DNA of 64,000 nt from the NCBI RefSeq assembly GCF_988243305.1, contig NZ_OZ547136.1. One strand, 5' to 3'. The notes under the pieces were generated by a model. The model searched no databases. It was not told where the DNA came from and saw only the letters and a program-made list of their open reading frames with translations. This document shows positions 22,551 to 23,506 of the stretch, in pieces; position 1 is the stretch's first letter; every line of letters starts with the position of its first letter. A program made the position numbers and the translations under genes.

Positions 22551-23288
22551 TCATTCACTCTCTTTCAAACCAGTTTTAACTGTTTGTGGTTTTGGGTAAG
22601 GCTGGACTTTGAATAGCTTTGTGTTAAGGCGTTTTCTGGCTCTCTTGTCCAGAAACCGGATGTAACGAAACTGACGGAATTTATGAACACTGGCTCTGTC
22701 GATATTAGCCCGCAGATGTTCACCTCGCTGTCCTCCTCGTTTGATTGCATTCTTGCAAATCTCGTGATACCACTCGCCATCAAGTTCATAGAATGTTGTT
22801 TCATGACTGCCTACATAATCAAAATTGCTTGCCTGGTACACGACACCAAGACAGCCACAACGCTCATCTGCAAACGACTGAACCCACTGCACCTGCGGAT
22901 AAAGTTGTCTGATTAGTTTGAGCGCGTAACTGATTGCCCTTGATTCGGAGTTTCTCGGCATACAGTCATGCAGCCATAACCGGTTAAGCTCCATATATTC
23001 GCGGTTCTGCGTGCCAGTTACGACGCGTGCACCATTGTTTGGATTAAGGGCATAACCCCATTGCATTACGCCAACCAGCTCCCGTTCTGAAAATATGCCC
23101 AGATGAAGGTAGGAATTATTTACGAAACGATGGCTGTAATGTTTATTGACGACGACCAGCCGGGCCAGCCAGCAACTTATTGTCTCAACCCGTAACTCAC
23201 GGGAGCCATAACCGACGATATTGTCGTTATAGTGAATAAGTTCAGGCGTGCTGATGATACGGGATGTAACTTGCTTTCTGTTCCCCAC
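22551..23288 (-). CDS. mom: Mom-like DNA modification protein (position and com linkage; start uncertain)
   Basis: Last gene before right end, immediately downstream of and overlapping a Com-like zinc-finger gene; proposed GTG start with AAGGAA SD 8 nt upstream; ORF frame extends to 23483. Confidence 0.6.
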
Positions 23289-23442
23289 GACAGGATTTCC
23301 TTGTGTATGTGGGGTGCTCTGTGGCGCTCTGAGATGTGATTTGATTGAGGGTTTTACAGCGCGGACATTTAACTTCCAGATAACTGAAGCTGGCTCGTGC
23401 CAGTAGCTTGTTACAATGTCGGCACCGTATGTTTCGATACAT
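23242..23442 (-). CDS. com: Com-like zinc-finger translational activator of mom
   Basis: [33 protein letters not shown]... matches Mu Com pattern IRCxxCNKLL...CPRCK; AGGAGG SD upstream; ORF frame extends to 23487. Confidence 0.75.
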
Positions 23443-23489
23443 GGCCGCATAACCTCCTGCTTTGTTGTTGATATCTTTATCACTCAATC

Positions 23490-23506
23490 GATCGACAAAA
23501 ACGATC
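23490..23506 (-). promoter_or_regulatory. pair of GATC (Dam) sites upstream of com-mom
   Basis: Two GATC 13 bp apart within CAATCGATCGACAAAAACGATCGATT; by analogy to the Dam/OxyR-controlled Mu mom promoter. Confidence 0.3.

Follow-up and report, generated by a model that had tools for sequence, protein, structure and literature searches.

Whether a zinc-finger ORF overlapping the start of its downstream neighbour, beneath a pair of GATC sites, amounts to a Mu-type com-mom DNA-modification module, and by which signals such a module would be turned on, is the question raised by the minus strand of the DNA analysed here, a 64,000-nt window from assembly GCF_988243305.1 (contig NZ_OZ547136.1). 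Based on the comparisons below, we are confident that the two genes form a com-mom late operon, which would operate through an RNA switch, the Mom chemistry and gating by OxyR; the prophage whose right end it occupies (about 22421-61500) is Mu-like and transposable and sits in the E. coli gene dcyD. The membership of both proteins in their families, the conserved residues, the overlap and its frame, the hairpin and the Com motif, and the GATC pair with its operator-like geometry are directly established. The original prediction of such a module is confirmed in its observation and supported as largely right in its interpretation.

The genes com and mom are the last coding unit ahead of the prophage right end, and those of Mu (Mu_52/Mu_53, AF083977) are likewise the last two genes before its right end. 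The end itself is the following feature.

22421..22550, no strand assigned: prophage right end, with three TTTGATAC repeats (22440, 22462 and 22497), mirroring three at the left end

Homology to insertions at other chromosomal sites ends at 22419-22423, and the termini as set by other insertions are 22421-22423 and 61496-61500, dcyD resuming at the latter, left end; dcyD is interrupted by the prophage, and the ORF at 22136..22558 is its 3′ fragment running into phage DNA. The flanks agree in TACA, or in 5 bp if one mismatch is allowed; a clean Mu-type 5-bp target duplication could not be established. The genes follow a Mu-like order, with a full Mu-like gene set in the window, including a C homologue (51058..51480, 40% identical to Mu C), and no IS insertions. 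At the DNA level, similarity to Mu is about 72% and confined to mom. Whereas gin directly precedes com in Mu, a three-gene cargo and a divergent ORF separate the two in this prophage; the sole plus-strand ORF near the palindrome described below lies at 23699..23992 and points away from it. The module is present in 232 of 5426 complete E. coli genomes beside varied host genes, as is expected of a transposable phage. On identical DNA in complete E. coli genomes, RefSeq places com at 23442..23242 and mom at 23288..22551, naming the latter product "tRNA(Gly)-dependent adenine aminoacyltransferase Mom"; the module is a divergent yet typical member of the Mu com-mom family, and public genomes already annotate such modules.

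The terminal gene had been taken for mom in the original prediction, and profile searches bore this assignment out.

22551..23288, minus strand: mom, predicted to encode a tRNA(Gly)-dependent aminoacyltransferase of adenine N6 with a GNAT fold, 245 aa, GTG start and TGA stop, with matches in Pfam, PHROG, Mu Mom, PDB and RefSeq

The protein matches Pfam PF25680 over profile positions 1-202 of 202 (1.6e-77, 260.2 bits against a cut-off of 27.1), phrog_1384 "Mom-like DNA modification protein" (6e-83) and the solved Mom structure PDB 8bv8 (2.4e-123 over residues 5-233), and is 78% identical to Mu Mom over the full length, with one 2-residue gap and 12 extra residues at the C-terminus. Mu Mom is a GNAT-fold enzyme that moves glycine from Gly-tRNA(Gly) to the N6 of adenine in double-stranded DNA, after which a rearrangement yields 6-NcmdA (PMC13219725, 2026). 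The predicted description of Mom as "acyltransferase-like" therefore holds for the family match, but the enzyme is now known as a Gly-tRNA(Gly)-dependent glycine transferase to adenine N6 and not as a generic acyltransferase (PMC13219725). Activity of Mu Mom requires R111, S124, D149 and R151 and is strongly lowered by mutation of W48, H58, Y59, Y159 or W181 (PMC13219725; residue numbers there equal the GenBank 231-aa numbering plus 10). All nine activity residues are identical here after mapping, namely W40, H50, Y51, R103, S116, D141, R143, Y151 and W173, which correspond in this order to Mu W48, H58, Y59, R111, S124, D149, R151, Y159 and W181. Mu Mom cannot do without its Mom-specific HTH-like insertion (PMC13219725), and this segment (about residues 175-209 in Mu) aligns without gaps in the sequence comparison.

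An internal GTG had been suggested as the mom start, and this was upheld. The mom frame offers only three candidate starts, GTG 23288, ATG 23450 and GTG 23483. GTG 23288 aligns with the annotated GTG start of Mu mom, is the RefSeq start on identical DNA and is preceded by AAGGA; in close variants, an in-frame stop 81 nt upstream leaves it as the sole start. From ATG 23450 the Shine-Dalgarno spacing would be 2 nt, and this start was rejected. So was the mechanically listed 310-aa ORF from GTG 23483, in which the Pfam match begins only at residue 96: because GTG 23288 aligns with the Mu start, follows AAGGA and is the only start left in the variants, the longer ORF is an accident of an open frame.

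The Com-like zinc-finger ORF was also found as predicted, a 66-aa CxxC...CxxC ORF at 23442..23242 overlapping the start of the terminal gene by 47 nt.

23242..23442, minus strand: com, predicted zinc-ribbon activator of mom translation with 66 aa and an ATG start, with matches in Pfam, PHROG, Mu Com and RefSeq
23453..23458, minus strand: com Shine-Dalgarno AGGAGG, 10 nt before the ATG, read from the sequence

Com matches Pfam PF10122 Zn_ribbon_Com with 47.4 bits (cut-off 22.9) as well as phrog_6417 and phrog_13819, the PHROG names being "translational regulator" and "gpCom control of modification". Although just 45% identical to Mu Com, it shares the four-cysteine zinc ribbon, with C7, C10, C27 and C30 aligned to Mu C6, C9, C26 and C29. 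The NCBIfam search gave no model matching Mom, and for Com only a sub-threshold match to a generic CXXC zinc-finger domain, although RefSeq names both proteins. The smaller one is labelled "Com family DNA-binding transcriptional regulator" in RefSeq, which misdescribes a protein predicted to bind RNA and activate translation. The AGGAGG is kept in 9 of the 10 distinct upstream variants of the lineage, the remaining one having AGAAGG.

The arrangement of the two genes agrees with the predicted likeness to Mu, in that com adjoins mom upstream, the mom GTG lies within com, and the frame offset of one base is the same, with an overlap of 47 nt against 50 nt in Mu. Folding of the overlap, on which the original prediction had staked itself, gave a conserved hairpin around the start codon, and the elements at this junction are as follows.

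23283..23314, minus strand: putative translation-inhibition hairpin, 5′ arm CCCCAC (23314..23309) and 3′ arm GUGGGG (23288..23283) with the mom GUG start
23298..23302, minus strand: Shine-Dalgarno-like AAGGA of mom, within the hairpin loop and 9-10 nt before the GUG, read from the sequence
23313..23329, minus strand: candidate Com RNA target GAGCGCC-ACA-GAGCACC, with CC-ACA-GAG (23324..23317) as its core and the hairpin adjoining on its 3′ side

The hairpin folds with -11.5 kcal/mol (z -2.07), its Mu counterpart with -8.7 kcal/mol (z -2.57), and in both phages the start codon sits in the 3′ arm of a CCCAC/GUGGG hairpin; the loop spans 20 nt here and 7 nt in Mu, and in Mu a GGAG occupies the same relative place as the AAGGA. 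For a view across relatives, 80 related loci were gathered and 11 distinct com-mom junctions aligned. When the stated structure was laid over these junctions, 84% of the cells were paired, against 31-54% with the partners slid. The 6-bp core is paired in all 11, one junction replacing a C-G by U.G in the hairpin. The outer pair is C-G in eight, as it is here, and U-A, as in Mu, in three; this exchange alters neither protein, com keeping His (CAU/CAC) and mom Gly (GGA/GGG), and such a silent compensatory change is the pattern expected if selection acted on RNA pairing.

In Mu, the mom GUG is part of the stem of a "translation inhibition structure", next to which lies a hairpin bearing the Com motif (PMC6483171). 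The candidate target here fits both the published motif 5′-CC(N)2-3GAG-3′ and the bipartite form from SELEX, NGAGNNCC(N)2-3GAGNNCC (PMC6483171), and its CC-N3-GAG stands in the same register as that of Mu, CCUGCGAGCAUCCCAC. The short stem that presents the motif (AUGC/GCAU in Mu) is weaker here, with two or three pairs, a C.A mismatch and -1.7 kcal/mol; the L035 lineage keeps this stem through three compensatory pairs. An Rfam scan of 22300-23800 at E up to 10 returned chance matches only, far under the gathering scores, leaving the com-mom junction without any covering curated Rfam family.

Upstream of com, the two predicted GATC sites were found 13 bp apart, at 23503-23506, where the predicted module had its end, and at 23490-23493, which is 64 and 51 nt before the com ATG, and they belong to a palindrome and a pair of putative OxyR half-sites.

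23486..23510, no strand assigned: palindrome AATCGATCG-N7-CGATCGATT, an inverted repeat of 9 bp without mismatches that contains both GATC (Dam) sites
23491-23505, no strand assigned: proposed OxyR half-site B′, ATCG-N7-CGAT, 7/10 against ATAGxTxxxAxCTAT
23522..23536, no strand assigned: proposed OxyR half-site A′ (ATTTGTTGTATCAAT), 7/10, 16 bp upstream of B′, with no GATC

An adjacent GATC pair with 13-bp spacing is unique in the window, and exact CGATCG-N7-CGATCG occurs once; however, at least one such pair arises by chance in 54% of mononucleotide shuffles of 64 kb, so it is conservation across lineages, not the count in the window, that makes the pair non-random. GATC-N9-GATC stands upstream of com in all 10 listed lineages of the Mu, window and L030-L035 types, with nine different N9 and diverged flanks, and was absent upstream of com at the com-bearing loci L047 and L048. 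An upstream half-site follows in all 10 at a gap of 16 bp (17 bp in one case), with scores of 5-8 out of 10, where the background chance of a score of at least 6 is 0.04 per placement. Within the lineage of this prophage, the block AATCGATCGTTTTTGTCGATC is invariant; A′ and B′ are invariant blocks in 10 lineage variants, while the gap between them and the 19 nt downstream vary. Scored as two half-sites with gaps of 7, 16 or 17 bp, the composite of A′ and B′ (23491-23536: ATTTGTTGTATCAAT, 16 bp, ATCGTTTTTGTCGAT) reaches 14/20. No other site in the 64-kb window, whichever strand is read, scores as high, and both score and gap are those of the Mu mom GATC region, where OxyR is reported to act; the consensus is loose, and the 16-bp gap was taken from Mu. 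Control of com-mom by Dam and OxyR, as predicted from these sites, appears well supported by comparison.

Bölker and Kahmann reportedly obtained an OxyR footprint on the Mu mom region in 1989, and the predicted resemblance to Dam/OxyR control of Mu holds in that the pair here is homologous to Mu GATC sites 2 and 3, AATCGATC-N9-GATCGATT (flanking bases in common being ATCAATTAAAT upstream and GATCGATT), and fits an OxyR half-site, with the 13-bp pair lying in a conserved palindrome and a second OxyR-like half-site 16 bp upstream in both phages. The resemblance fails in number and place: there are two GATCs instead of three, the upstream half-site ending in CAAT where that of Mu ends in CGATC, and only 43 nt separate the palindrome from the com ATG where Mu has 70 nt, which brings it about 27 bp closer. 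The OxyR/Dam promoters of P22 gtr and E. coli agn43 offer a second comparison, since the GATC pairs of gtr, like the one here, lie exactly 13 bp apart within single OxyR half-sites, with the consensus ATAGxTxxxAxCTAT, and the gtr pair at -46/-33 overlaps the promoter, where OxyR represses by occupancy (PMC2909390). Unlike gtr and agn43, the present region has no evident third alternative half-site, so its sequence does not predict phase-variable ON/OFF switching, and the genes it precedes serve a lethal late phage function and not a surface-modification operon.

With its operator about 27 bp nearer to com, this prophage cannot have the promoter geometry of Mu. The 27 nt missing here correspond to the part of the Mu sequence with the C-activator site (ATTATGCCCCAATAACC), a -35-like element and the T6 run, and C binds a site overlapping the Mu mom promoter (PMC4461284). 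The Mu order of operator, C-activator site and poor promoter with T6 run and TAAGAT was not found here: neither a C site nor a T6 run could be recognised, nor a TAAGAT at a conserved position. Upstream of com there is no evident match to the Mu C site ATAAYCC or to the phage's own lys-promoter region, which, when the upstream regions of lys and I were compared with the Mu late promoters, proved recognisably homologous to Mu Plys. A scan for sigma-70 promoters and terminators called no promoter on the com-mom strand, and the feature proposed for the -10 is a candidate only.

23474..23479, minus strand: candidate -10 TAAAGA (TAAGAT in Mu), uncertain, from its position after the second GATC by comparison with sister lineages

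TAAAGAT was rejected as an established Mu-like -10, lying in the most variable stretch of the lineage alignment (GAAAGG, GCAAAC). An alternative sigma-70-like pair further upstream, ATGACA-17 bp-TATCAA at 23551..23523, would place the palindrome in the leader. The sister lineages L030-L032 have a near-consensus -10 (TATACT or TATAGT) 7-9 nt after the second GATC, so there the GATC half-site must overlap the -35 and spacer; a leader hairpin follows this -10, with covarying GCCAC/GUGGC versus GCCG/CGGC. If the -10 of this prophage directly follows the GATC pair in the same way, the geometry would be gtr-like. We tentatively put forward, as a possibility that we hold to be rather doubtful, that in this lineage and L030-L032 the operator has moved about three helical turns toward com so that a half-site overlaps the -35 and spacer, that OxyR represses by promoter occlusion as at P22 gtr and agn43 and not from an upstream site as in Mu, and that the C site was lost or replaced.

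Other readings of the palindrome were weighed against an OxyR/Dam switch. It might instead be a site for the phage's own late activator (a C/Mor-family dimer) or a core promoter element, in which case the GATCs would only happen to lie in a CGATCG-based dyad; dimers typically bind such perfect inverted repeats of 9 bp, no other C-like site can be seen, and a -10 at 7-10 nt downstream, as in L030-L032, would put the palindrome at about -20 to -45. This is, we assume, roughly where C binds at Mu Pmom. Yet the phage's lys promoter region resembles Mu Plys without having a GATC or a similar dyad, and the homologous palindrome of Mu, part of the GATC cluster linked to OxyR/Dam control, is located upstream of the C site. 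Across lineages the GATCs keep their 13-bp spacing, but the remaining dyad is not conserved, and a second half-site at a constant gap of 16 bp suits an OxyR tetramer and not a single dimer, so that we regard a late-activator site as unlikely. That the palindrome acts as an RNA hairpin appears very unlikely to us, be it as an intrinsic terminator on the plus (antisense) strand or as a 5′-leader stem should transcription start from ATGACA-17 bp-TATCAA (23551..23523). The scan did call a terminator-like element on the plus strand, a 9-bp stem followed by TGATTTATTT, and the upstream sigma-70-like pair matches in 5/6 and 4/6 positions across a 17-bp spacer with an invariant ATGAC core; but the terminator call was rejected because no plus-strand gene runs into the palindrome, the nearby ORF at 23699..23992 pointing away, and on the com-mom strand no U-run follows the palindrome, TATCAA is missing the conserved final T, and the Mu transcript begins only downstream of the same palindrome.

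It is also conceivable, though in our judgement most improbable, that the whole module is a decaying, non-functional remnant of a defective prophage. A closely related copy in another genome is broken elsewhere in the prophage by two IS66-family elements, the -10 candidate is poor and variable, and the target duplication at the flanks falls short of a clean 5 bp. Against decay, both ORFs are intact with every functional residue kept, the RNA elements and the operator are invariant in 10 variants while the neighbouring DNA varies, the prophage in the window has its full Mu-like gene set uninterrupted by IS elements, and occurrence at many different sites in 232 genomes implies recent transposition.

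For the functional com-mom module under OxyR/Dam control that we prefer, the following course of events is proposed, in which Com binding and translational activation, the Mom chemistry, sensitivity to OxyR and Dam, and dependence on a late activator would be as known from Mu and from the OxyR literature. Host OxyR most likely gates transcription by binding 23522-23536 together with 23491-23505 only when both GATCs are free of Dam methylation, and the phage late activator, for which the C homologue at 51058..51480 is at hand, probably adds to com-mom transcription. A single transcript would bear com and then mom, and Com, a putative zinc-ribbon RNA-binding protein, would be made from the same mRNA as mom. 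On this mRNA the mom GUG and its AAGGA ribosome site would be locked in the CCCCAC/GUGGGG hairpin until Com bound CC-ACA-GAG directly 5′ of it and the hairpin opened, whereupon ribosomes could start at the GUG. Mom, through its GNAT fold, is then predicted to transfer glycine from Gly-tRNA(Gly) to the N6 of adenines in the double-stranded phage DNA, where the glycine would rearrange to 6-NcmdA and leave the DNA refractory to many restriction enzymes.

How far this package extends can be judged from the com-less Mom homologues (loci L049-L084, 66-70% identical), which belong to the same enzyme family but have neither a Com ORF, nor the GUG-in-hairpin junction, nor the upstream GATC pair; since they lack all three, the combination of Com, hairpin and GATC pair is specific to Mu-type lineages. 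Across com-mom modules, the GUG within a hairpin, the CC-N3-GAG motif and the 13-bp GATC pair with its second half-site 16 bp upstream are constrained, whereas the distance from operator to promoter is free to move, which is a modest refinement of a well-studied system.

In conclusion, only the shorter distance from operator to gene and the loss of a recognisable C site are mildly new. If the occlusion model were true, mom would have a second type of regulatory architecture, one not described before, and its expression might depend on the methylation state differently, e.g. by being sensitive to hemimethylation just after replication. The practical value of the comparison lies in correct annotation, as the prophage has a complete Mu-type DNA-hypermodification module, and with the module complete any released phage should, judging from the sequence, resist many restriction systems.

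In Mu no gene stands between gin and com, whereas in the window prophage this interval carries a three-gene cargo, and the features concerned are as follows.

26917..27489, gin-like recombinase, bounding the cargo on the side away from com
24160-26831, minus strand, three-gene cargo, between the gin-like recombinase and com
23699-23992, plus strand, divergent ORF of 97 aa, adjoining the cargo

The first cargo gene encodes a 684-aa protein that combines a SASA (sialate O-acetylesterase) domain with DUF6645, and it is followed in order by DUF1378 and DUF826, a trio that we take to be similar to the nanS-p cassette of Stx/lambdoid prophages; the divergent ORF gave no family match. 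The prophage ends also depart from Mu, which makes a clean 5-bp target duplication, since the dcyD flanks (22414-22423 and 61496-61501) have only TACA in common, or 5 bp with one mismatch. As judged from other insertions, the right terminus reads inward TATATAGCG, which does not satisfy the TG...CA rule of Mu, and the left reads inward CATGTAACC or TACATGTAACC. In another E. coli strain, a near-identical prophage (NZ_AP045820.1) is broken by two IS66-family elements (12148-14564 and 36679-39014), which sit one each in the DNA-circularization gene and the early region. The com-mom sequences of this prophage and of the window are 100% identical, and no such insertions are found in the window copy.

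Upstream of com, the sister lineages (L030-L032) have a leader hairpin 10-40 nt ahead of the gene, downstream of the -10 but before the com ribosome site, and its stem covaries (GCCAC...GUGGC versus GCCG...CGGC), whereas in the window lineage this position is occupied by CAACAACAAAG, a stretch in which one variant of the lineage (L018) has a CAACAA repeat expansion. Within the window copy, the mom frame runs without a stop across the entire com (23486-23288, minus strand), giving a 310-aa ORF that includes an ATG at 23450, just 8 nt ahead of the com ATG. This extended frame is not a conserved feature among the close variants, and it looks accidental.

On identical DNA in annotated E. coli genomes (H19-H33), RefSeq names Com a 'Com family DNA-binding transcriptional regulator', which is at odds with its role as an RNA-binding translational activator, and the identical Mom protein is called 'hypothetical protein' in several of these genomes; NCBIfam has no model matching Mom.

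Mom homologues (36, at 66-70% identity; L049-L084) lie mid-contig in viral contigs. At the ten of these loci inspected, neither a Com ORF, nor a GUG-in-hairpin junction, nor an upstream GATC pair was found, and several have an apparent terminator ahead; therefore Mom occurs outside the com-dependent regulatory package too.
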